From: Candidatus Bathyarchaeia archaeon
Lineage (GTDB): Archaea > Thermoproteota > Bathyarchaeia > Bathyarchaeales > Bathycorpusculaceae
Length of the DNA: 64,000 bases
Reading direction: 5' to 3'
NCBI GenBank assembly: GCA_049512935.1
Contig: JBEKWR010000006.1
Location: forward strand, 85,934 to 149,933
Position numbers and translations under genes: made by a program. Each line of letters begins with the position of its first letter. The first letter of the stretch is position 1. Positions 5,899-28,277 of the stretch are shown here, one piece after another. The notes under the pieces were generated by a model. It did no database searches. It saw nothing but the letters and a program-made list of their open reading frames with translations, and was not told the origin of the DNA.

Positions 5899-6408
5899 CT
5901 AAGGGTTCTTGCCTGGAGCCATGCGCCACGTAGAAACGCTGAATAACGTGAACGCCGAGAGAAAAAGCAACACCATAATTTTGGTCAGGGCGAACGTTTG
6001 GAATGCGGAGATGGCCAGGATCGCGATTGGAAATGGACCGAGCAGCGTGAAAAAGAAGATGGCGACGGCTACGCCGTATGTTTCCTTGTAGTCTTTGATG
6101 CTTCGTTTGCCAAAGTACAACGCTGACAGCCTGCCCATGCCGAAGGTGCATTTTTTGCAGTTGTAGCAGGGTCGCATGCACCCAAGAAACTTGAGTACGC
6201 CGTAGACGCCGATGAGCGCAACAAGAAGGAACACCGCGCCAGCCGCCACGCTGACAAAGAGGAAAGCCGCAGTGTCCAGTGCAATCCAGAGTGCAAGGGC
6301 AAGGTTGCCGATGATGGTGAACGTTTTTGGGAACTCGATTGTCGCCGTTGCTTTTCCCGCTCCGCCGAGAATATGATTGCCCAGCGATATGAAAGTTTCA
6401 CTTAGCAT
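5899..6408 (-). CDS. membrane protein with Cys cluster (CxxPCYNCKKC)
   Basis: 169 aa, four TM helices; start uncertain. Confidence 0.75.
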   Translation of the reverse strand: MLSETFISLGNHILGGAGKATATIEFPKTFTIIGNLALALWIALDTAAFLFVSVAAGAVFLLVALIGVYGVLKFLGCMRPCYNCKKCTFGMGRLSALYFGKRSIKDYKETYGVAVAIFFFTLLGPFPIAILAISAFQTFALTKIMVLLFLSAFTLFSVSTWRMAPGKNP

Positions 6409-6420
6409 ATTCCAGCCAAG

Positions 6421-7739
6421 GATACTGTTAAGTTACCCATTTGACAGAACCTGTTCAACAACTTGTGATTACAACTTGAAATACGCAAAATATATAAAGA
6501 GATACAATCGTTGTAGTAGCTTGAGCATGCCCTTAGACCAAAGGGCTTGTTTCGTGTGTTAATTGATGTATCTATTTAGTTTTTTCTCTTAACTCATCAG
6601 GAGTTATTTTTGTTAAGCTAGTACCACAGTTCTTCAAGTATTGGTATAGTTTTTCGCTATTTTCCCCCAATACTAAGAAATAGTCGCCAGATTTGCCCAA
6701 TCTAACATCAGTATCAGCTCTAAAATACTTGAAACTGCCTTTTGTAGCGAAAAGGAAATTCGATAAGTCATCAAAGATTGGCAGGTCTTCAAACAACGTT
6801 CTTTCCTCTTTTGTAGCCACACCCGCCAAGGACTCGGTGGGAACAAATACTAATGGTCGCGCAATAAATTGGGTCAAATCAATTTCTCGCCTATTGACTG
6901 GGGTCATGAACCTCAATATTGCCGTGTTTCCACCTAGTTCATGTACTAAAACTTTTCTCGACCATGGGAATGCAGAATAAAGTCGTTCAAAGCCTTGTCT
7001 GCCAAAATATTCATGCCTTTCTTTTAGTGCCACAATAGTGACTCTGAGTAATAAATCAGCTACTGAAATCAAACAATTACAGTTTCCACCCTTGTAAACG
7101 ACAGATAAGTTTGAAAGGTGAGATATTGCTTCCCAACATGGCGTATGACATGACTCAAAATGGTCAACGTAAATTTTTTCAATGTCTTTGTTGCCATACT
7201 CATTAAGATAGAAATAGGCAACATTATGTGGGTAACCATTTGTAATTAAGCGTAGAAATTCAACTGGATTCTTTGTCTCTGGCTGATCTTGACCGTATAT
7301 CGATATTGCTGGATTTTTAGCGGGATTGTAGCGAGTAAAATACACGTCAATTCGCTCTATCTCTTCCTTAAGGCAATCGAGTAATGGCATAAGTATTTGA
7401 TTCTCACGTTCAGGTGCTAACCGTGAAATATCGTAGGCTTTTAGTACAACTCGTTTTGTTTTAATTCCGAGTGTATCTAAGGAACTTTTCATACAAGTCG
7501 CATAAGCATCATTGAATTTCTTTTCGTTTTTACATGACACGGCAATACCTAGCAATCCTTCAAAAATGTTGGGTTTATTGCCTAATTCTGCCTTTACTGA
7601 GTCAATGCCTACAGCCACCAAGCAAATGTCATCCACGTTTTAGATTAGTAGGATTTCGCTCTTAATGTTTTTGTTTATGCTATTTTTACTTTCTGTTTGA
7701 TTTTTCTTTTGTACTCCTCTTCACTTAGTTAACAGTATC
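6421..7739. mobile_element. non-autonomous IS6-like cassette (TIR-bounded, one passenger gene)
   Basis: Left end gatactgttaagtta is identical to the first 15 nt of the TIR at 24651; right end ttaacagtatc (7729-7739); AT-rich interior; no transposase and no direct TSD. Confidence 0.6.
6572..7636 (-). CDS. hypothetical protein, putative RNase H-like/DUF3800-like fold
   Basis: 354 aa, AT-rich; N-terminal VAVGIDS, IYVDHFE and ISVADLL acidic motifs; fold is inference. Confidence 0.6.
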   Translation of the reverse strand: MDDICLVAVGIDSVKAELGNKPNIFEGLLGIAVSCKNEKKFNDAYATCMKSSLDTLGIKTKRVVLKAYDISRLAPERENQILMPLLDCLKEEIERIDVYFTRYNPAKNPAISIYGQDQPETKNPVEFLRLITNGYPHNVAYFYLNEYGNKDIEKIYVDHFESCHTPCWEAISHLSNLSVVYKGGNCNCLISVADLLLRVTIVALKERHEYFGRQGFERLYSAFPWSRKVLVHELGGNTAILRFMTPVNRREIDLTQFIARPLVFVPTESLAGVATKEERTLFEDLPIFDDLSNFLFATKGSFKYFRADTDVRLGKSGDYFLVLGENSEKLYQYLKNCGTSLTKITPDELREKTK

Positions 7740-7971
7740 GTATCCTTGGATACCGTTAAGTCTTTTGTGGTGGCAAGTGGGCTGAATTCAAATGCTGGAA
7801 AAACGCCGAAGAAGCAGAGCAAATCGTAACGTCACCCATGAAAAGCTACCAGCAACTCCAACAAAAACAAGCAGGGCTCGCAGAAGCCCCATAACCATTT
7901 TTTTGGTTCAAAGGCAAGCGCTAACTTTTTATCGATTCGTCATTAAATTAACATGCCGCGGGAGAACGCCA

Positions 7972-8577
7972 ATGGATTTCATATCCGATTTAGTCAAAGC
8001 CGTCATAGCCTTATTCATAATTGTCGATCCCTTCGGCAACATACCCATCTTTATAGGTTTAACCGAAAACATTCCCGAAGCACAGATAAAAAAGGTGTAC
8101 AACACTGCAGTGATTGTTGGAATGGCTTTATTACTAGTTTTCGCCTTTGCAGGAACCGCCATTTTAGACATTTTCGGGTTGACGATACCCAGCTTCGAGG
8201 TGGCAGGAGGAATTCTGCTCCTAATTATTGCCGTTAGAATAGTGGTCTCAGGTATTCACGAAACGGTTGAATCTCCAGAAAGTATAGGAGCAGTCCCAAT
8301 AGCTATTCCGCTTCTCGTTGGGCCCGGAGCCATCACCACAACCATAATTACTCTTCAATCTTACAGTACTGAAGGGGCAGCAATTGCAGTTACAATCACA
8401 GTTCTCGCCGTTGTGATAGTGCTGTCTTTAACATGGGTTATTCTTAGGTTCATTAACGGCATCCACAAGGTTTTAGGCAAAACAGGCGCGGTAGTGATAG
8501 CCAGAGTTATGGCGCTTCTTATCGCCGCCATCGCAGTCCAGTACATACTGACCGGCGTAACCCACTTCATAGCCTAA
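7972..8577 (+). CDS. marC: MarC family membrane protein
   Basis: IVDPFGNIPIF, AVPIAIPLLVGPGAIT, ARVMALLIAAIAVQ; start set at ATG 7972. Confidence 0.92.
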   Translation: MDFISDLVKAVIALFIIVDPFGNIPIFIGLTENIPEAQIKKVYNTAVIVGMALLLVFAFAGTAILDIFGLTIPSFEVAGGILLLIIAVRIVVSGIHETVESPESIGAVPIAIPLLVGPGAITTTIITLQSYSTEGAAIAVTITVLAVVIVLSLTWVILRFINGIHKVLGKTGAVVIARVMALLIAAIAVQYILTGVTHFIA

Positions 8578-8934
8578 AACGCAAACTGTACAAAACAAAC
8601 AATTCGCCGGGCGTCGAGCAGGGGCAGTGGGCTGTCTGACATATTACGATTCTTTGCACAACGCTTAAAAGACGTTTCATTGAGAAATGGAAGTTATGCT
8701 CGTTTGGGGATGAGAGAGGGGCTTAAAGTCCACCCGAAGCCGCCCTTAGCTTCCATTCCGCTTCCGTCAGGAGGGGATTCCTTAGGTTTGTCCATGTTTC
8801 GCTTCGGGTTTCTGCGGCTTGGCTTCGGCTTATCCGCTGGACAACCGTGGATAGGGCCTCTTTCCGCCGTGATATACTGTAGAAATCGTAATATTGGCAT
8901 GAGGTAATAATGGATATATTAATACTCGCTACAG

Positions 8935-9777
8935 TTGAAAGTCGGCGAGCAAAATGAGTGGAAAAAACAGCATCAAACAAGCCGCCGTAATGTTCGAAGA
9001 AAAAGCGGATTCACAATTTACGAAGAAGAAAGCGTTGTTTACTTTCAGCAGATTGATGGAGACTTAGACGTTTTGCCGCAGCAGTCAGATGCCCCCGACG
9101 TAAGCGTAATCATACCCGCCTACAACGAAGAGGAGACCATAGCTGAGGTCCTGCGCAGGATGATCAAAGTCAGCTGGTCGCTGGGCAACGTGGAAATCAT
9201 CGTGGTCGACGACGGGTCCTCTGACCGCACCAGAGAAGAGGTCACGGCTTTTCCGCTTGTCAAGTGCTTCAGCCACGCTGTTAACCGCGGCAAAGGCGCC
9301 GCCGTGCGCACCGGCATCGAAAACAGCCATGGCAAAGTCGTTGTAATCAACGACGCGGATTTGGAGTACGAGCCTGAGTACCTGCCTATGCTGGTGAAGC
9401 CGATTTTGGACGGTTCCAGCGACATCGTTTACGGCAGCAGGTTCAAAGGCGACACGGATGGGATGAGCTTTTCCCACTACGTTGGGAACTCGGTGCTGTC
9501 GCTTATGGCGCGGTTCCTCTACAGCCGAGAAATCACCGACATAATGACTGGGCAAAAGGCGTTCCGCCGCTCGATTCTGGACGGCGCCAAGCTGCGGGAA
9601 GACGGCTTCGCGGTTGAGGTTGAAATGACCTGTGCGGGTTTGAACGCCGGGCGAAGGTTCAAGGAGGTCCCGATTCCCTACTTGTACAGGCGCCACGGCT
9701 ACAGCAAAATCGCCAACATGGACGGCGTCAGAAGCTTCATCAAACTAATAACGCTCTTCTTAACGACAAACGGCTAA
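8935..9777 (+). CDS. GT2 glycosyltransferase (DPM1-like)
   Basis: VIIPAYNEE, VVDDGSSD, NRGKGAA, DADLEY, GSRF; start uncertain. Confidence 0.92.
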   Translation: MKVGEQNEWKKQHQTSRRNVRRKSGFTIYEEESVVYFQQIDGDLDVLPQQSDAPDVSVIIPAYNEEETIAEVLRRMIKVSWSLGNVEIIVVDDGSSDRTREEVTAFPLVKCFSHAVNRGKGAAVRTGIENSHGKVVVINDADLEYEPEYLPMLVKPILDGSSDIVYGSRFKGDTDGMSFSHYVGNSVLSLMARFLYSREITDIMTGQKAFRRSILDGAKLREDGFAVEVEMTCAGLNAGRRFKEVPIPYLYRRHGYSKIANMDGVRSFIKLITLFLTTNG

Positions 9778-9882
9778 AACAGGCGCAAAACGGCGCAGCC
9801 CTGTCTTCGTGTTTGGTCGCTCTGTCAAGAAGCCTTCTTGGCGAAGGCGCGTTTTTGAAACGGGTGTCTTCGAGGTCCCACT

Positions 9883-11052
9883 TTGATTCTTTGCTTTACG
9901 AGTCACCGTTACGCTCCGCTGGTCGGCGGCTACGATAACCAGATCAGGCTGCTGGCTGAGAACCTGAGCAGGTTCTTCCCCGTAAAAGTCGTCACGTTCA
10001 ACCTGACAGGCAGCGTGGCGGCGGAGTCCATCGGCAACGTTCAAGTCTACCGCGTGAAGCCTCAGCTGGTTTTTTTCCGCGTGCCCTTCTCCGCGGCGTT
10101 CCTCAGGAAACTCGGCAGCTTGGAGTTCGACATTCTGCACGCGCACGGTTTCGTGCCCGTTGTCTCCGACCTGTGCGTTGCCTACGCCAAGTCCAAGGGG
10201 AAAGCCACGGTTTACACTCACCACTTCGACGGCAACGTCCAAGACGCCCAGGCGTGGAACCTTCTCGCCGACGCCTACAACAGAACCGTCGCGCGCTTCA
10301 GCTTCAAGTACGCGGACGCGTTGGTTGCGACGACCAAGAGCTACGCGGAAACCTCGCCCGCACTGAAACGTGACCTCGGCAGAGTGAAGGTTATCCCGTG
10401 CTTCGTGGATTGCCGCCGCTTCAAGCCCCAGCCTCGGGAGCAGGTGGACGCGTTGAGGAGGCAGCTTGGTCTCGGCGGGGCTAAGACCGTGCTGTTCGTG
10501 GGCAGAATCGTTCCCTACAAGGGCTTGGAGTATCTTGTGCGCGCGGTTGAAGAGGCTAAGCAGCTGCTGGGCGAGGATCTCAGGTTGCTGGTGGTCGGCG
10601 GCGAAGAGGGAAAAAACATAACGGGCAAATCCAGCTACTACGCGCAGATCCGCAGGCAGGCAGAGCAAAGCGGCGTCGGCGGCAGCATCCGTTTCCTTGG
10701 CAGAGTCCCCGACAGCCAACTGGCAACCCTGTACAGCCTTGCCGACGCGTTGGCGCTTCCTTCGGTGATGCGGGGAGAAGCCTTCGGAACCGTGCTGCTT
10801 GAAGCCTTGGCGTGCGGAACACCCGTGGTCGCGTCGGACATAGCTGGCGTGAAGGACGTTTTGATGGGCGACGGCTCGGTTGGCAGCTACGTTCCAGCGA
10901 GGGACGCCGCGGCGTTGGCTAAGGCGCTGGTTCGGATGGCCCACCGAAAAGACGAAGTGTCAGAGAGATGCGTGCAGTTCGCGTTTGACAATTACCGCGT
11001 GGAAAAAATCGTGCAGGAATACGTCAACCTCTACACGTCGCTGAAACGCTGA
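9883..11052 (+). CDS. GT4 glycosyltransferase
   Basis: FVGRIVPYKG, EAFGTVLLEALACGTPVV. Confidence 0.93.
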   Translation: MILCFTSHRYAPLVGGYDNQIRLLAENLSRFFPVKVVTFNLTGSVAAESIGNVQVYRVKPQLVFFRVPFSAAFLRKLGSLEFDILHAHGFVPVVSDLCVAYAKSKGKATVYTHHFDGNVQDAQAWNLLADAYNRTVARFSFKYADALVATTKSYAETSPALKRDLGRVKVIPCFVDCRRFKPQPREQVDALRRQLGLGGAKTVLFVGRIVPYKGLEYLVRAVEEAKQLLGEDLRLLVVGGEEGKNITGKSSYYAQIRRQAEQSGVGGSIRFLGRVPDSQLATLYSLADALALPSVMRGEAFGTVLLEALACGTPVVASDIAGVKDVLMGDGSVGSYVPARDAAALAKALVRMAHRKDEVSERCVQFAFDNYRVEKIVQEYVNLYTSLKR

Positions 11053-11168
11053 CTGGTCTTTTGTGAGGTTTGGTTGCTTTGGCTTTGGTGATGGTTCAGA
11101 TCCCTAAGAAGGTTGTCGGCGGCGAAGTTGTTGTCTTGAGTTTGAAGCCCAGCAGGATGAAGTAGACT

Positions 11169-12311
11169 TTGCGAGTGTTAATGACTGCGCCGTCTTATTA
11201 TCCAAATAAAGGCGGTACGGAGACGATGGTCCGTGAAATCTCCGCTGGACTTAATCGTGTTGGCATTGAAACGGACATTATGACTTTTAATATGACTGAA
11301 AGGTGGAAGCCAAGATGGAGTGGAGCGGTCGAAAGTATCGATCAGTCCACGATCTATAAAATTCCTGGCTTAAACTGGCATCCGATGACCGATTCCATGC
11401 GAATAACCATGGGTGTAAATGTTATTCCTGGTCGATGTACGCAAATAATGAAAAAATATGACATCATACATTATCATGAGCTTGAGTTGAGCTTTCCGCT
11501 ATTCACTTATCAGGTTAAGAAACCTAAGATTTTGCACCTTCACGGATTCGATCCTAATTTCCTTAATAGACATCTCCTGAGCAAGATGATTTTTGAAAGA
11601 ACGGTAGATTACTACGTGGCTATATCTAGAAAAGCAAGAAGCGATTTATCAAGCTTAGGCATTTCTAGCAGCAGAATTCTTTATCTGCCAAACGGCGTTG
11701 ACACGAATGTTTTTCAACCAAGCGGTGAAAAAGAGGAAAATTTGCTGCTATTCGTTGGTAGACTGACAACCCAGAAGGGCTTGCCCGTTTTATTGCGTGC
11801 ATTACGTTATGTAGACACTCCTGTTCGCTTGGTGGTTATAGGTCCTCCTTCATCATCTGCATATTATGACTTTATCAGAGAATTAGCCAGAAAAGAGGTT
11901 TCAAGGGGCAGACATAAGATAGAGATTTTAGGCGACGTGAACGGTTCTATAGTACCCTGGTATCAGAAAGCCTCTATTTTCGTTTTGCCCTCGTTATGGG
12001 AGGGTTTGCCAGTTGTTGCGATAGAAGCACTCGCGTGCGGCACCCCAGTTGTTGCAACATCTGTAGATGGAACACCTGAAGTTGTTACGGATAATGAAAA
12101 TGGTTTTCTTGTGCCTGCAAATGATCCACGAAGATTGGCGGAAAAAATTCAGTATCTGCTGGAAAACCCGTCTTTAAGAGTTAAAATGGGCAAGGAAGGC
12201 AGAAATAGGATGATTGAGGATTTTTCCATGGATGTTCTTTTGAAGAGGCTTCGCAGGTTTTATGAGGAAATCCTTTCTGGAGGAAGGGATAGGATAAGCG
12301 ATATTGCTTGA
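11169..12311 (+). CDS. GT4 glycosyltransferase
   Basis: PNGVD, FVGRLTTQKG, EGLPVVAIEALACG. Confidence 0.93.
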   Translation: MRVLMTAPSYYPNKGGTETMVREISAGLNRVGIETDIMTFNMTERWKPRWSGAVESIDQSTIYKIPGLNWHPMTDSMRITMGVNVIPGRCTQIMKKYDIIHYHELELSFPLFTYQVKKPKILHLHGFDPNFLNRHLLSKMIFERTVDYYVAISRKARSDLSSLGISSSRILYLPNGVDTNVFQPSGEKEENLLLFVGRLTTQKGLPVLLRALRYVDTPVRLVVIGPPSSSAYYDFIRELARKEVSRGRHKIEILGDVNGSIVPWYQKASIFVLPSLWEGLPVVAIEALACGTPVVATSVDGTPEVVTDNENGFLVPANDPRRLAEKIQYLLENPSLRVKMGKEGRNRMIEDFSMDVLLKRLRRFYEEILSGGRDRISDIA

Positions 12312-25088: not shown

Positions 25089-25199
25089 GGGTATTCACCG
25101 AAATCAGATACTGTTTATTTATCCTTACTGCTATTTCTGTTTTACAATAAAAGATTTTACTTAAAAAGAAAAAACAAAAAAAGGGAAAGGGGTTTTGAT

Positions 25200-25934
25200 T
25201 TAGCTTTTCGTCTCTGCTAGTGCTTCACTTGATTTAGTCGTGTCTACTGTTTTTTTCTTCTCTGCCATGAAGTCTATAAATTTCTTGGCTAGGTCGTAAG
25301 CTCCTTGCTCAAATAATCCCTTAAGCAAGTCGCCAGAACTGAGAGTATATGGAGCAGTTTCAGTATATTGAGGTGATTGACCTTGCTTTGGATTTGCTTC
25401 GGAAGTGTTTATTTGGAGTGACTCTTGCATTTGATTAGCCTCATTTTGAGTTCCTTTTAACGAATTAAGGTAATGTATATCATCCAAATAATCGTTTCTG
25501 ACCTTTTGCGAGATTTTTTTTGCGTCGTCAGGTACTATTTCAGCAATTTGCTTTAAGTCTACCCAAAAATCCACATCGGGCAGTTCTACATTCTTACTTG
25601 TATATTTCTCGTAAAATATCTTCCATAAAGGGATATTTACGATAGCTTCTTTGACAGCGCTAAAAGGGTCGTCTGCCTTTGTTGGATGAGCTATTCTTGC
25701 GCCAAGTTCCGATACTTGAACAAATCCTCTTCCAACAATTAAGCCATAAACTCTCATTGCTGCTATTTTGCTTAAATAGCCTCCAGTTATGCCTGTGTGC
25801 CCTAGGAATACAGCCAACATTTTTTTGTCGTCTATTGGATTAGTTCCAAATTTTCCCCACATCTTTTGCAGGTTATCGATTAGAGTAGGCTGGAGTCGCC
25901 AATCGGGGTATTCAAATTTCGTTCCTACTTTCAT
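25200..25934 (-). CDS. passenger protein, putative winged-helix family
   Basis: 244 aa; YP..L, GGYLSKIAAMRVYGLI..VSELGARIAHP..IPLWKIFY pattern; fold is inference. Confidence 0.7.
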   Translation of the reverse strand: MKVGTKFEYPDWRLQPTLIDNLQKMWGKFGTNPIDDKKMLAVFLGHTGITGGYLSKIAAMRVYGLIVGRGFVQVSELGARIAHPTKADDPFSAVKEAIVNIPLWKIFYEKYTSKNVELPDVDFWVDLKQIAEIVPDDAKKISQKVRNDYLDDIHYLNSLKGTQNEANQMQESLQINTSEANPKQGQSPQYTETAPYTLSSGDLLKGLFEQGAYDLAKKFIDFMAEKKKTVDTTKSSEALAETKS

Positions 25935-26010
25935 TTTTACACACGCAACAAATAATACAATATAGATGTAAAATTTAAAGGTTGCGCAATTCTACAAGAT
26001 TTAGGAATGC

Positions 26011-26020
26011 TTATATTTAA
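26011..26020 (+). promoter_or_regulatory. TATA box for the putative ncRNA
   Basis: ttatatttaa lies ~25-30 nt before the first stem of the structured segment. Confidence 0.5.
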
Positions 26021-26042
26021 CTGTGTAGTAATTCCTATTTCA

Positions 26043-26160
26043 GGAGTAGTGAGAGGGTAGCGGTCTGGAAAGACTGACCACGCGAATAATATTGCGACAC
26101 AAGCTTGGTGCAAACAGGCTTGTGAAAAAGGCGTGGATGCCTCTACCCTCTGCTGCTCTC
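26043..26160 (+). ncRNA. putative structured non-coding RNA inside the IS6-like element
   Basis: GC-rich island with four stems: 26044-60/26143-58; 26061-76 with GGAA loop; 26078-83/26131-36; 26098-107/26115-124. The non-Watson-Crick pairs are G-U on the + strand. Confidence 0.65.
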
Positions 26161-26169
26161 GGATTGTCG

Positions 26170-26319
26170 CTATTTTATGACCGTTCGCTCTTTTATGCGT
26201 TTCTCCCATTCCGATTGCGAAACTATGCCTTTTTTATCGAGTAAATCAACTAGGCTTTCAAGCATAGTGCTAAGTAGGTTTATTTCTTCTTTCAAGTCTT
26301 CAATATTGGTTTTCTTCAT
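26170..26319 (-). CDS. 49-aa protein (MKKTNIEDLK..LVDLLDKKGIVSQSEWEKRIKE)
   Basis: Not in the ORF track; AGGTGG RBS-like site, overlaps the RHH gene. Confidence 0.65.
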   Translation of the reverse strand: MKKTNIEDLKEEINLLSTMLESLVDLLDKKGIVSQSEWEKRIKERTVIK

Positions 26320-26473
26320 GTTTCCCACCTTTCGCAAGATAACCTTGTTCGGATAACCAATTCATGATAATGGTGCGGAGAGTGTCTGATCGGGTTTGCC
26401 CGATTTTTCCTAGCAACTCTTTGTCTAAAGTGTTGACAACACCATCAGGTAAGGATACTAAGATTTTTTTCAT
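26300..26473 (-). CDS. 57-aa CopG/ribbon-helix-helix regulator
   Basis: MKKILVSLPDGVVNTLD..TRSDTLRTII; ATGA-coupled to the transposase stop. Confidence 0.8.
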   Translation of the reverse strand: MKKILVSLPDGVVNTLDKELLGKIGQTRSDTLRTIIMNWLSEQGYLAKGGKHEENQY

Positions 26474-27387
26474 TGTGTTACCATCTCTAACGCTTTATCA
26501 TTCGCTTGTTTTGTTTGAACTGCTCTTGATACTGTTTCCGTTTCGTATTTTGTTGCTCGGTCAATTAAGGCTTTCCAGTTGTTGGGTACTTCCATTCTTG
26601 CTGCTTGAGCTGGAGTTTTTCCACCTAAACTTTGGTGTGGTCTAACGTAGTTATAGTGCACCGTGTAACCTTCAAGAATGTCTTTTGTTGATTCAAAAGC
26701 TTTTAGTCCTCTCATGCATCTTGTTCTGTCTTTGAGTGTTCCATGTAACCGTTCTACTATATTGTTGGTCTCTCTTGCTCTTATGCCAACTCTTTGAACT
26801 AACTCTGGTCTTGTGTCTTTTCGCATAGTGTAAAATACCTTGTTAAAGGCTGCATTGTAAACATGACTGCCGTCCACGAATACTGCTCTCGGTCTAACTC
26901 TGCTCTGTTGAACTCCTTTCTTGAAAATAGCTACTGTGTCTTCAAAGGTTCTTGTGTTTGAAATGTGAGACGCCACTAAGAATCGAGTATCCTCATCTAT
27001 CATTTCCCAGAACCAAATGTTCCGTCCTTCGCATGAAAGCATTGTTTCATCTTCATGCCATAAACCTGAAAGTTGCGGTATAACAGTTGTAGTGTATTCT
27101 TTCACTAGTTTGCTGTATTTCTTTAGCCAATTAAGAATCGTGACTTGGCTAATTCTTTCGCCAAAAATTTGCTCCAAGTTTCTCTGTGCTTTACGTAAGC
27201 TTAGACCGTCATAATAGAAGTTTAGGGCTGCTACTATTAGGTTTTTATCGTTTCTCATTTTGGAGAATTTGCCGTTTGAGAAAAAGCGTTTTCCGCATTC
27301 TTTGCATTTGTAGACCTGCGTTCCTTTAATTGAACCGTTTTTGACGATTTTTTCGCTGTTGCAATATTTGCAGTTCATCAGTTTCAC
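26470..27387 (-). CDS. IS6-family (archaeal IS1/IS6-type) DDE transposase with N-terminal zinc finger
   Basis: CKYC..CKEC; WHEDET, FVDG, NNIVERLHGTLKDR..MRGLK, YNYVRPHQSL. Confidence 0.93.
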   Translation of the reverse strand: MKLMNCKYCNSEKIVKNGSIKGTQVYKCKECGKRFFSNGKFSKMRNDKNLIVAALNFYYDGLSLRKAQRNLEQIFGERISQVTILNWLKKYSKLVKEYTTTVIPQLSGLWHEDETMLSCEGRNIWFWEMIDEDTRFLVASHISNTRTFEDTVAIFKKGVQQSRVRPRAVFVDGSHVYNAAFNKVFYTMRKDTRPELVQRVGIRARETNNIVERLHGTLKDRTRCMRGLKAFESTKDILEGYTVHYNYVRPHQSLGGKTPAQAARMEVPNNWKALIDRATKYETETVSRAVQTKQANDKALEMVTQ

Positions 27388-27388
27388 G

Positions 27389-27461
27389 CTCTTACAGGTA
27401 TACTATAGGATACCTTACCGTATTTATATCTTGTGGTATAGCTTTAAGATACCTGTAAGAG
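27389..27461. promoter_or_regulatory. 13-bp inverted repeat bracketing the transposase promoter
   Basis: ctcttacaggtat (27389-27401) / atacctgtaagag (27449-27461) around TATA-like tttatat. Confidence 0.6.
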
Positions 27462-27610
27462 ACTGCTCTCTTTTATGACCTTTACCAATATTAATTTTTT
27501 TATAATAAAACTTATAAGAAGAAGCCATTGCTCTATTATTATTAGTTTATTCTCCCTATCGTTCGTCTAGGACGGTAGGTATTTATTTGCGTTTTCGTCA
27601 TTAGCTAAAC

Positions 27611-28156
27611 ATGGGCAAAGCAGTTGTATTGATTGACGGTGGTTATCTCAACAAAGTTTTAGAGAAGATATATCATAGACCACCGTTTAGTTATGAAAAA
27701 TTTTGCAATAAATTATGCGAGAAAGCTGAATGCCAGCGTGTTAGAACTTACTACTACAACTGCCCACCTTTTCAAAGCAATCCTCCAACCGAGATAGAAA
27801 GCCAAAAAACTGCTGATTATGATTGTTTTATTAAATTCTTGAAAGATACCCCGCGTTTCTTGTATCGACCTGGAAGACTGCAACGCATAGGAGGAGAATT
27901 TAAGCAGAAACATGTTGATGTGCATTTATCTGTTGACCTTGTCAAACTATCCTGTAAACACAGTATCGATAAAGCTATTCTGGTTACAGGAGATAGTGAT
28001 TTTGTTCCTGCCGTAGACGTTGCAAAAGAGGAAGGAGTGGTCACAATTCTCTATTACTCAAACATTCCACCGATGTACATCCATCGCGAGATATTAGAGA
28101 AATGTGATGAAAAATATTTAATTGACGCAGATATTATGGCTACTTCAAGACCCTAA
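27611..28156 (+). CDS. NYN domain (LabA/DUF88, PIN-like) protein
   Basis: LIDGGYL, RTYYY, KQKHVDVHLSVD, LVTGDSDFVPAV. Confidence 0.92.
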   Translation: MGKAVVLIDGGYLNKVLEKIYHRPPFSYEKFCNKLCEKAECQRVRTYYYNCPPFQSNPPTEIESQKTADYDCFIKFLKDTPRFLYRPGRLQRIGGEFKQKHVDVHLSVDLVKLSCKHSIDKAILVTGDSDFVPAVDVAKEEGVVTILYYSNIPPMYIHREILEKCDEKYLIDADIMATSRP

Positions 28157-28277
28157 ACTATTGCCGTTCTAACCGATTTAGGTCATGACAAATAACTTAA
28201 CAGTATCGGTAGGCAGAAAGATTTAATTATCGATGGTTTCTGTTGGTTTCTTGTAAGATAGGAGGAATGAATCAAAT

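Follow-up and report, generated by a model that had tools for sequence, protein, structure and literature searches.

The window, the whole stretch of 64,000 nucleotides analysed here (positions 85,934 to 149,933 of contig JBEKWR010000006.1, assembly GCA_049512935.1, from Candidatus Bathyarchaeia archaeon), carries a 3.1 kb transposon of the IS6 family at 25107-28207, bounded by terminal inverted repeats. A passenger gene on the left of the transposon is followed by a structured RNA element on the + strand, a convergent operon of transposase and small-protein genes (the tnp-RHH operon) and a second passenger gene on the right. The features, in order along the window, are:

25107-25122 (+): left terminal inverted repeat, starting GATACTGTT and matching 28192-28207 at 14 of 16 positions.
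25200-25934 (-): p244, an open reading frame for a 244-aa passenger protein, divergent from the RNA.
26011-26020 (+): TATA-like box TTATATTTAA; pairing begins 23-32 nt downstream of it, at 26043.
26043-26160 (+): structured RNA element, 118 nt here, supported by its fold (z -6.62), by covariation and by a covariance model that matches 18 further distinct copies.
26170-26337 (-): small55, an open reading frame of 55 aa, the last gene of the tnp operon and convergent with the RNA.
26173-26176 (+): TTTT run, 13 nt past the last paired base and within the last small55 codons on the opposite strand.
26300-26473 (-): 57-aa ribbon-helix-helix-like (RHH) protein, labelled by eye, with no Pfam match and kept in the related loci L019 and L020.
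26470-27387 (-): tnp305, an IS6-family DDE transposase with an N-terminal zinc-binding domain (NCBIfam transpos_IS6, 129.6 bits; Pfam DDE_Tnp_IS240, E 4.1e-20).
27611-28156 (+): NYN-domain passenger protein (Pfam NYN, E 4.3e-14).
28192-28207 (-): right terminal inverted repeat, the transposon end at 28207 being set by the repeat match and by contig divergence.

Assignment to the IS6 family is based on the score against the curated model NF033587, for which tnp305 (129.6 bits) and tnp401, the transposase of the related copy G020b (130.8 bits), both pass the cut-off of 125, and on GG-tipped inverted repeats with a CTGT motif, the form that the main text of PMC7986276 gives for IS6 termini. The 16-nt GATACTGTT repeats at both ends of the window element are of the same type as the GGWWCTGTWAAG repeats of related copies; contigs from two DNA runs diverge at 28207, and synteny with relatives begins at 28209-28211. 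The initial annotation, which had placed the RNA inside a transposon, was right about the IS6 element and underestimated its extent, the true ends being these 16-nt repeats at 25107 and 28207. Complete RNA-bearing elements with GGWWCTGTWAAG-type repeats and 8-9 bp target duplications are found at L019, L020, G020b and L017 (the last with one mismatch in its duplication), and both copies in genome G123, which lack the RNA, likewise have repeats of this type and target duplications. The target duplication expected of IS6 transposons (8 bp) is thus seen in all of these and not at the window element, whose flanks read CGAAATCA and GGTAGGCA. The transposases of the RNA-bearing element types share only 32% identity.

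The accompanying small genes are less readily classified. p244 has no Pfam or NCBIfam match and finds only hypothetical clusters in the Atlas, and small55 has no Pfam or NCBIfam family above cut-off. A p244 homologue nevertheless adjoins the RNA in G046 (70% identity) and in L019 and L020 (37-39%), while small55 is matched by homologues at L019 and L020 and, in G046, by a remnant of its C terminus.

The GC-rich structured island reported by the initial annotation is real. GC content is 0.51 over 26050-26149, compared with 0.27 over 25950-26049 and 0.36 over 26200-26299, and 26040-26165 reaches -59.2 kcal/mol when folded as the + strand (z -6.62, equalled by 0 of 200 shuffles) and -40.4 (z -3.47) as the - strand; the relatives and the covariation described below point the same way. 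The bases described were verified in the window sequence, and all the helices named in that annotation are present, its closing stem corresponding to 26043-26060 paired with 26143-26159. The parts of the element are:

26052-26060 (+): 5' strand of P1, AGAGGGUAG, pairing with 26143-26151 (helix 1, double changes in 5 of 8 pairs).
26061-26076 (+): lineage-specific hairpin CGGUCU-GGAA-AGACUG, found in the window, in variant form in G046, and missing from the other copies.
26078-26083 (+): 5' strand of P2, CCACGC, pairing with GCGUGG at 26131-26136 (helix 3, double changes in 4 of 6 pairs; also seen in the MAFFT-only alignment).
26084-26097 (+): 5' strand of the internal loop, core AAUAUUGCGA, near-invariant across alignments.
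26098-26124 (+): P3 hairpin of 10 bp with loop GUGCAAA (helix 5, double changes in 6 of 8 pairs).
26125-26130 (+): 3' strand of the internal loop, conserved and A-rich in the alignments; its AAAGG end includes the first P2 base.
26143-26151 (+): 3' strand of P1, CUACCCUCU, from the window fold and covariation.

An outer extension of P1 (26043-26050 with 26152-26159) is restricted to the window copy and G046. The minimum-energy fold of the window favours two small local hairpins over the CCACGC/GCGUGG pairing, unlike the relatives, which favour P2.

BLAST with the element matched only 2 of 41 relatives' genomes, so covariance models were needed to recover the family. These gave 15 matches in 13 of the 120 genomes of the genus, with at most two copies per genome. 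A first exact-pattern scan of genome contigs returned G020 only, a second exact pattern found six metagenome loci (two of them identical to the window), and the viral contigs scanned with both patterns contained no match. Altogether the family comprises 19 distinct copies at 18 loci, namely the window copy and 18 others at 17 loci, carried by one Bathyarchaeota genus of peat-bog archaea and by metagenome contigs; none of the 150 other genomes searched in a class-wide sample had a match.

The initial annotation recognised no known RNA family in the element, and the searches agree. Rfam 15 has no match at gathering threshold in the whole window, only chance-level lncRNA matches around the element (E 3.3-8.6) and none at the RNA positions of eight homologous loci. 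ARAGORN predicts no tRNA or tmRNA gene in the window, and no Rfam tRNA model matches at the element. A box H/ACA guide RNA would show an ACA box after the lower stem, a C/D guide RNA its C/D boxes, and a K-turn a bulge of 3 nt with tandem G-A pairs after it; none of these features was conserved when the family alignment was inspected by eye. Measured against Rfam, the family is previously undescribed, and the cluster tables of preprints could hold the motif.

In consensus the family is an unbranched rod of about 95-118 nt, built in the order P1, a small asymmetric loop, P2, a large internal loop and P3. P1 is a conserved helix of the GGGUAGCGG/CCGCUACCC type, the large internal loop is near-invariant in its 5' strand (AAUAUUGCGA) and in its 3' strand (GAUAAAGG), and P3 varies in length, other copies having a shorter top with GAAA or GUAA caps. 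The multi-way junction of the initial annotation is thus peculiar to the window copy and its closest relative, G046, and does not extend to the family, the hairpin at 26061-26076 being an insertion into the rod.

In the alignment of all 19 copies, pairing holds in 94.2% of 450 cells and drops to 35-48% when partners are slid; double-sided changes occur in 16 of 26 pairs, and 0 of 500 shuffles attain such values. Because this alignment was fitted to the model and its members are related to one another, the shuffle counts exaggerate the significance. P1 and P2 are also recovered when MAFFT alone makes the alignment, double changes then affecting 8 of 13 pairs, and in the solo copies L035 and L037, which have no neighbouring transposase, P1 is preserved by changes in its two strands. 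Homologous elements therefore display the covariation to which the initial annotation looked, and P1, P2 and P3 are, judged from these comparisons, maintained by compensatory changes. The G-U pairs of the + strand, in which it saw a sign of selection on RNA, are in excess across the family, with 59 G-U cells against 15 A-C (29 against 14 when the doubtful helix 4 is excluded). It is very probable that the element is a real, selected structure at the RNA level on the + strand.

The strong sequence conservation of the P1 arms and loop strands might also reflect a site that acts as DNA, bound by protein or used in recombination, with two inverted GGGTAGCGG arms whose spacer has a palindromic core, CAATATTG. 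Most copies have this core as a palindrome at the DNA level, the element occurs in either orientation relative to the transposase, and the same elements encode small proteins of DNA-binding type (RHH-like and AbrB-like, by eye). A DNA site would not, however, readily account for compensatory changes in all three helices, the variable P3 with its GNRA-type caps included, for the excess of G-U over A-C cells, or for the lower fold energy of the sense strand in 9 of the 10 copies folded on both strands. In addition, the palindrome needs G-U pairs in four copies (CAGUAUUG in L028, L031 and L034, AAUGUU in G079), and no third copy of the P1 arm was found at the transposon ends, left ends included. 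We consider this explanation distinctly unlikely.

Homology between copies at first appeared to stop at the element, hinting at a transposon end. The idea that the element is an IS terminus or a MITE was nonetheless rejected, as the true terminal repeats and target duplications lie further out. A MITE would be expected in many genomic copies, with ends matching the repeats of its parent IS and a target duplication of its own; here no genome has more than two copies, and the P1 arms are unlike IS terminal repeats.

The RNA lies just downstream of the IS6 transposase unit, in either orientation, and 15 of 19 copies adjoin this unit or its 3' remnant; with 177 bp to more than 1 kb between element and transposon end, it is internal, not terminal. 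Thirteen copies start 0-70 nt past the stop codon of a co-oriented gene, which is the transposase in 11 and p244-like in two (L019 and L020), and in several of the copies that we call type A, whose transposase is tnp401, the last transposase codons fall inside the element. Converging genes often flank it. The window RNA itself is convergent with the tnp-RHH operon, as the initial annotation had it. Orientation relative to the transposase is not the same in the two element types, a difference that speaks against an RNA acting solely in cis, within the transposase mRNA.

The RNA is not found in most related elements. An unfiltered scan of 24 tnp401-type loci left 20 without a match, two with strong matches (the known copies) and two with weak matches (19.7 and 12.3 bits) that do not lie at the transposase end. 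The tnp305 module also occurs without the RNA, in nine other genomes and once more in the genome to which the window belongs, and the two RNA-less IS6 copies of G123, with their target duplications, are 100% identical. With most related IS6 copies lacking it, the element is optional cargo that transposition does not need, and the RNA is almost certainly a passenger of IS6 transposons.

How the RNA might be made differs among copies. The promoter proposed in the initial annotation has partial support, from two of them: the window has a TATA-like box at the right distance and G046 has TTTAATA at -30 to -24, and neither has a co-oriented gene upstream. No such box was seen in the other copies, and the 13 that directly follow a co-oriented stop codon have no evident TATA box. 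The short T-run also noted at the outset is present at 26173-26176, and at least four T within about 22 nt downstream are found in 13 of 19 copies, compared with 21% of control windows. Upstream, at least four A precede 11 of the 19, making the flanks symmetric, like those of a bidirectional terminator. Contigs from two metatranscriptome runs (of 23 runs) cover 26321-26577 only, at about 200 nt and a depth of 2-5, and a small RNA is undetectable in such contigs.

This two-way terminator layout, together with the site 0-70 nt past stop codons and the frequent converging neighbours, raises the question of whether the element is only a 3'-end device, one that terminates or insulates transcripts or stabilises their 3' ends where units of the transposon converge, with no separate RNA function. 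It does resemble 3'-UTR-derived small RNAs and intrinsic terminators in its post-stop-codon site and in the T-run after its last helix, but is longer than these, with three covarying helices and invariant loop strands. Archaeal termination requires T-runs, not long hairpins, and a rod of about 100 nt whose loops stay near-invariant beside transposases of 32% identity goes far beyond termination needs. Moreover, the window and G046 copies have their TATA-like box and lack a co-oriented gene upstream, and most sister elements do without the RNA. A role confined to 3' ends is, on this evidence, rather unlikely.

The initial annotation had suggested an RNA antitoxin for the NYN nuclease, a claim left unsupported by tblastn, which found an NYN match at none of the 17 other loci (18 other copies), so that among the 18 loci and 19 copies the domain is seen in the window's own sequence only. 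More broadly, the RNA could be an antitoxin or regulator of a toxin-like passenger (NYN, Fic/DOC or PemK): besides the NYN gene of the window element, a Fic/DOC gene converges directly on the RNA in G020a, Fic/DOC is also present within the L020 element, and a PemK-like gene lies 46 nt from the solo G079 copy. No toxin family is common to the loci, however, and the complete elements L017 and L019 have no toxin-like gene at all. Type III toxin-antitoxin RNAs are tandem repeats adjoining one conserved toxin gene, whereas the element here is a single unit without tandem repeats and its toxin-like neighbours differ or are absent. We find a toxin partner very doubtful.

Conserved unpaired strands between helices, borne on a mobile element, would also suit a self-cleaving ribozyme or a transposase guide RNA, and the element overlaps or abuts the transposase 3' end much as sense-overlapping RNAs do at the 3' end of IS1341-type genes (PMC4615843, as described there). 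Nevertheless, no Rfam ribozyme matches, and the internal loops stay nearly invariant across target sites whose duplications differ, which leaves the guide function of the initial annotation unsupported. Most IS6 copies, such as the identical G123 pair, transpose without the RNA, and both a ribozyme and a guide seem to us highly improbable.

Comparison with known RNA systems leads to similar distinctions. Omega RNAs (tnpB, IS200/IS605, IS1341-type) are likewise structured RNAs abutting or overlapping the 3' end of a transposon gene, and are marked by an adjacent TnpB or IscB and a scaffold running into the transposon end; here the locus ORFs include neither protein, there is no variable guide segment, and the RNA is internal and confined to a minority of sister elements. 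Bridge RNAs and seekRNAs (IS110, IS1111) share with it an IS-encoded origin and helix-flanked internal loops. Those RNAs accompany an IS110-type recombinase of DEDD type, upstream of it, and have loops that covary with target and donor, whereas the present RNA is optional, lies downstream of a DDE IS6 transposase and has loops that are invariant across insertion sites. Antisense control RNAs of transposases, e.g. RNA-OUT of IS10, offer a further likeness as small IS-internal RNAs, and the RNA here could similarly restrain the transposase, that of the window running toward the 3' end of the tnp operon. Unlike RNA-OUT it does not overlap the transposase start, and RNAduplex pairing with the transposase 5' region of nine elements was no better than with shuffled targets (z -1.9 to +1.4). 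The carrier elements themselves resemble tIS, i.e. IS6 elements with passenger genes, in their transposase, GG...CTGT repeats and, the window element apart, 8-bp target duplications, and differ in bearing several passengers and an RNA gene. Only one passenger-bearing IS6 member is named in passages of the review PMC7986276, and the word RNA, when searched for, was absent from its main text.

We favour the reading that 26043-26160 (+) of the window is a member of a new family of structured RNAs carried as optional internal passengers by IS6 transposons, and give this scheme as a whole, with the production and role set out below, a probability of about one half. The RNA would be produced by one of two routes: in the window and G046 from a TATA-type promoter of its own, elsewhere as the 3' end of an upstream co-oriented transcript, which would be that of the transposase in type A and of the p244-like gene in L019 and L020; it would most often end at the T-run. 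Because its loop strands are invariant, they may form a site for a protein, and from this pattern of conservation the RNA is probably protein-binding. That it keeps a constant place beside the 3' end of the transposase unit hints at transposon control, in which it may regulate the expression or activity of its carrier. Persistence near dead or absent transposases, together with the compensatory changes, suggests it could act in trans. Binding site, control and action in trans are the least certain steps of this scheme, and that control is exerted through protein binding is a tentative proposal, somewhat short of even odds.

A bolder version, which we think unlikely, would make the RNA a trans-acting partner of IS6 DDE transposases: its invariant loop would bind the transposase or a small protein encoded by the element and so set the level of transposition, and copies retained by the host, through selection on their structure, after transposase decay would provide RNA-based immunity against related IS6 copies. 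If true, this would be the first known RNA component for the IS6 family.

IS6/IS26 elements are among the best studied insertion-sequence families. Here an uncultured archaeal genus has many multi-passenger IS6 elements, a subset of them with a covarying structured RNA. Should this RNA control or assist the transposase, a DDE family regarded as driven by proteins alone would gain an RNA layer; should it be a portable small RNA gene, genes for non-coding RNAs would be among the cargo that archaeal insertion sequences spread. In both cases the RNA motif is new and clean, and varied enough in sequence for bench testing.

Two further candidates within the element were set aside. The 12-nt similarity between 26088-26099 and 27357-27368 is mRNA-sense and falls in zinc-binding-motif codons, and was taken as chance; a 50-aa frame at 26092-26244, considered as a small ORF, has no type A counterpart. 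The element RNA also contains a self-complementary stretch, CAAUAUUG.

The sequence at 26011-26175 matches its description in the initial annotation, and the structured stretch within it (26043-26160, + strand; the RNA element) lies in a GC-rich island, with a GC content of 0.51 at 26050-26149 against 0.27 just upstream and 0.36 downstream. Folding of 26040-26165 gives -59.2 kcal/mol on the + strand (z -6.62; none of 200 dinucleotide shuffles folds as well) and -40.4 kcal/mol on the - strand (z -3.47). The claim that it belongs to no known family also holds: the whole window has 0 Rfam matches at gathering thresholds, around the RNA element Rfam returned lncRNA matches only, at chance level (E 3.3-8.6), no Rfam ribozyme family matches it, and ARAGORN found no tRNA. 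The features of its surroundings are:

25200-25934, - strand, p244 (244-aa passenger protein)
26011-26020, + strand, TATA-like box TTATATTTAA, 23-32 nt ahead of the first paired base (26043)
26170-26337, - strand, small55 (55-aa protein)
26173-26176, + strand, TTTT run downstream of the RNA element
26300-26473, - strand, RHH-like protein (57 aa)
26470-27387, - strand, tnp305, IS6-family transposase (NCBIfam 129.6 bits, cut-off 125; Pfam DDE_Tnp_IS240)
27611-28156, + strand, NYN gene (passenger)

The window's own genome has only one copy of the RNA element, and in 40 other genomes BLAST picked up a single partial relative. Of 120 genomes of the genus, 5 had matches to a covariance model from the single sequence (R1); a second model, from 10 sequences (R2), gave 15 matches, in 13 of the 120. 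A sample of 150 further genomes from across the class gave no R2 match. Pattern searching in metagenome contigs yielded 6 loci, of which 2 are identical to the window, and two such scans of viral contigs found nothing. With 19 distinct copies in all, the distribution is narrow, in one Bathyarchaeota genus.

The consensus fold of this family is a rod without branches. A 3-nt bulge lies between a short outer helix (GAGA/UCUC) and helix P1, of the GGGUAGCGG/CCGCUACCC type, which is followed by an asymmetric loop, helix P2 (6-8 bp), a large internal loop with near-invariant strands (5' AAUAUUGCGA, 3' GAUAAAGG) and the hairpin P3, variable in length and closed by a GUGCAAG-like loop in some copies and by GAAA, GUAA or similar in others. 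The multi-way junction proposed initially is present in the window copy and does not extend to the family; its GGAA-capped hairpin (26061-26076) and long outer stem are confined to the window copy and that of genome G046, making the junction a lineage-specific decoration.

In the main covariation test, on a model-fitted alignment of the 19 copies, 94.2% of 450 cells are standard pairs, compared with 35-48% after a shift of the 3' partners by 1-3 columns, both sides change in 16 of 26 pairs, and 0 of 500 shuffles reached the observed covariation values, in an alignment biased to structure and made of related copies. Because of this bias and kinship, RNAalifold was also run on a plain MAFFT alignment, where it recovered P1 and P2 with double changes in 8 of 13 pairs; P3 is missing from that result only because its length varies. 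G-U cells number 59 and A-C cells 15 (29 and 14 omitting the doubtful helix 4). Of 10 copies folded on each strand, 9 (all except L032) reach a lower minimum free energy on the sense strand. Conserved, covarying structure in homologues, a check named by the initial annotation, is thus present across the 19 copies, and the RNA element is shown to be a selected structure with the strand bias expected of an RNA.

The closest known systems are other transposon-borne structured RNAs, namely omega RNAs, bridge RNAs and antisense control RNAs, and the RNA element belongs to none of these. Within the literature surveyed, work on non-coding RNA and transposases of IS6, archaea or Bathyarchaeota comprised TnpB and IS110 RNA studies only, and that on structured RNA, covariation and transposases in Bathyarchaeia consisted of general motif surveys. 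Two 2026 preprints that mine non-coding elements with language models mention IS110 and omega RNAs in passages that name no IS6 elements, the occurrences of 'IS6' there being IS621. The main text of an IS6 review (PMC7986276) never uses the word RNA, and passages of it name a single IS6 member with a passenger gene. Together these results identify the RNA element, on comparative sequence evidence, as a new structured RNA motif with covarying helices, on a family of transposons without known RNA, a finding that we consider real and worth following up.

In the first comparisons similarity between copies ended at the RNA element, which pointed to a transposon terminus, an idea dropped after the true ends were found further out. 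They were revealed in genome G123 by an RNA-less relative present as two copies of 2,434 bp, 100% identical, which have GGWWCTGTAAAG-type inverted repeats, in agreement with the IS6 terminal repeats described in PMC7986276, and 8-bp target duplications. Complete RNA-bearing transposons are bounded by repeats of this type and 8-9 bp duplications:

L019, 2,274 bp
L020, about 3.0 kb
G020b, 3,410 bp
L017, 2,641 bp, one mismatch in the duplication

In the window, terminal repeats at 25107-25122 and 28192-28207 (14/16 positions identical) define a transposon at 25107-28207 that encloses p244, the RNA, small55, the RHH-like gene, the transposase and the NYN gene. Two independent observations agree with its right end, the start of synteny with relatives (28209-28211) and the divergence point of contigs from two DNA runs; the flanks (25099-25106 and 28208-28216) show no target duplication. 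The RNA was therefore rightly placed inside the transposon, and is internal cargo, not a transposon end.

Contigs of the two DNA runs depart at 28207 and go on as the reverse complement of 28208-28216, which suggests an inversion of the transposon or its flank in other strains, the outcome expected if IS6 copies recombine with each other. A direct repeat (26153-26184 and 27461-27478) flanks the small55-RHH-tnp305 module; the left copy, CTGCTCTC and TTTTATGACC separated by 12 nt, covers the RNA 3' end and the last small55 codons, the right copy, with CTGCTCTC and TTTTATGACC ungapped, lies upstream of the transposase, and the pair may have been left behind by an earlier copy next to it. At L028 (G007), a tRNA gene (686-760, - strand, Rfam 62.9 bits) lies 53 nt outside the terminal repeat (813-824) of the RNA-bearing transposon. 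L014 (G020) carries two IS6 transposons head to tail (6086-9495 and 9504-11818), the 8-bp duplication of the first running straight into GGTT of the second. Both carry an RNA copy; the passengers differ, being small membrane proteins in one case and Fic/DOC in the other, and the transposase of the second is truncated.

The 19 copies comprise 11 of type A, 4 of type B and 4 solo. In type A the RNA element lies directly 3' of, and on the same strand as, tnp401, an IS6 transposase of 380-400 aa (NCBIfam 130.8 bits, weak SWIM match in Pfam) with 32% identity to the window's enzyme. A full-length transposase match accompanies six type A copies (G020b, L017, L022, L028, L029, L032), with in-frame stops flagged in the genomic transposase copies behind L028, L029 and L032, and five have just the last 59-109 residues (G020a, G084, L030, L031, L033). 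Genus-wide, dozens of short matches to the last 60-110 tnp401-type residues are scattered with or without the RNA, and decay of these transposons seems to spare the gene's 3' end. In type B (window, L019, L020) the RNA element is convergent with an operon in which tnp305 is followed on the same strand by the RHH-like protein and small55; in the fourth copy, G046, a C-terminal piece of small55 alone remains of the operon. All four have a p244-type gene on the other side, divergent in the window and G046, co-oriented and ending 0-3 nt ahead of the RNA element in L019 and L020. The solo copies have no transposase within 7 kb each side (G079) or about 1.5 kb (L034, L035, L037).

A partnership with the NYN nuclease, also proposed initially, is not borne out, as the NYN gene is not conserved with the RNA across copies, whose toxin-like neighbours vary (NYN, Fic/DOC or PemK-like). 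By eye, a tnp401-type transposon without the RNA (L058, G061:C1) has an NYN-like ORF ~150 nt past the transposase stop, and IS6 transposons of the genus may repeatedly carry NYN genes, independent of the RNA.

Genes of tnp401 type are abundant, with matches at E 1e-20 or better in 51 of 120 genus genomes (tnp305-type included). When 24 loci around these genes were scanned with filters off, two matched strongly, both of them known copies (G054, G086), two weakly (19.7 and 12.3 bits, at least 475 nt off the transposase ends) and 20 not at all. The tnp305-RHH-small55 module is also present in nine further genomes and has a second copy in the window's genome; similarity there ends at window position 26185-26199, short of the RNA element, and these genomes have no model match there. 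As most related IS6 loci and modules are without it, the RNA is not required for transposition, and is optional cargo of IS6 transposons. A weak second R2 match (L048 76-167, + strand, G070:C207; 19.7 bits, E 0.006), ~1 kb from the known copy L033 on the same contig, may be a decayed copy. A sister transposon without the RNA (L042, G007:C52) has a different small GC-rich, GCAA-capped hairpin in the same place, about 80-130 nt past the transposase stop, and other cargo RNAs may occupy this slot.

The RNA element starts 0-70 nt past the stop codon of a co-oriented gene in 13/19 copies, and in several type A copies the final transposase codons fall within its 5' strand. The window and G046 alone have a TATA-like box (about -27) that would match the promoter of its own proposed initially. 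A run of at least four T follows within about 22 nt in 13/19 copies, compared with 21% of control windows (binomial P about 1e-5, overstated since the copies are kin), and a run of at least four A precedes it in 11/19, so the flanks are also compatible with a two-way terminator. Metatranscriptome contigs (two runs of one study) cover just 26321-26577, the RHH-like gene and transposase gene 3' end, at depth 2-5 without mismatches, with none on the RNA element, and may reflect DNA carry-over.

The position of the RNA on IS6 transposons, where it adjoins the transposase unit at its 3' end, leads us to infer that it would act on the expression or activity of its own transposon, with the near-invariant internal-loop strands forming a putative binding site. 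Action in trans, or independently of the transposase, would fit the occurrence of the RNA element in either orientation relative to the transposase, the 10 of 19 copies beside a dead or absent transposase, and the preservation of P1 in solo copies L035 and L037 by changes on both strands. Loops that stay constant whatever the insertion site count against a role as guide, raised initially, and no pairing of the RNA with the transposase 5' region rose above shuffled controls. The loop stretch CAAUAUUG is self-complementary; its variants CAGUAUUG (L028, L031, L034) and AAUGUU (G079) are so solely via G-U, by eye and in few sequences, which favours recognition of the loop as RNA rather than DNA.
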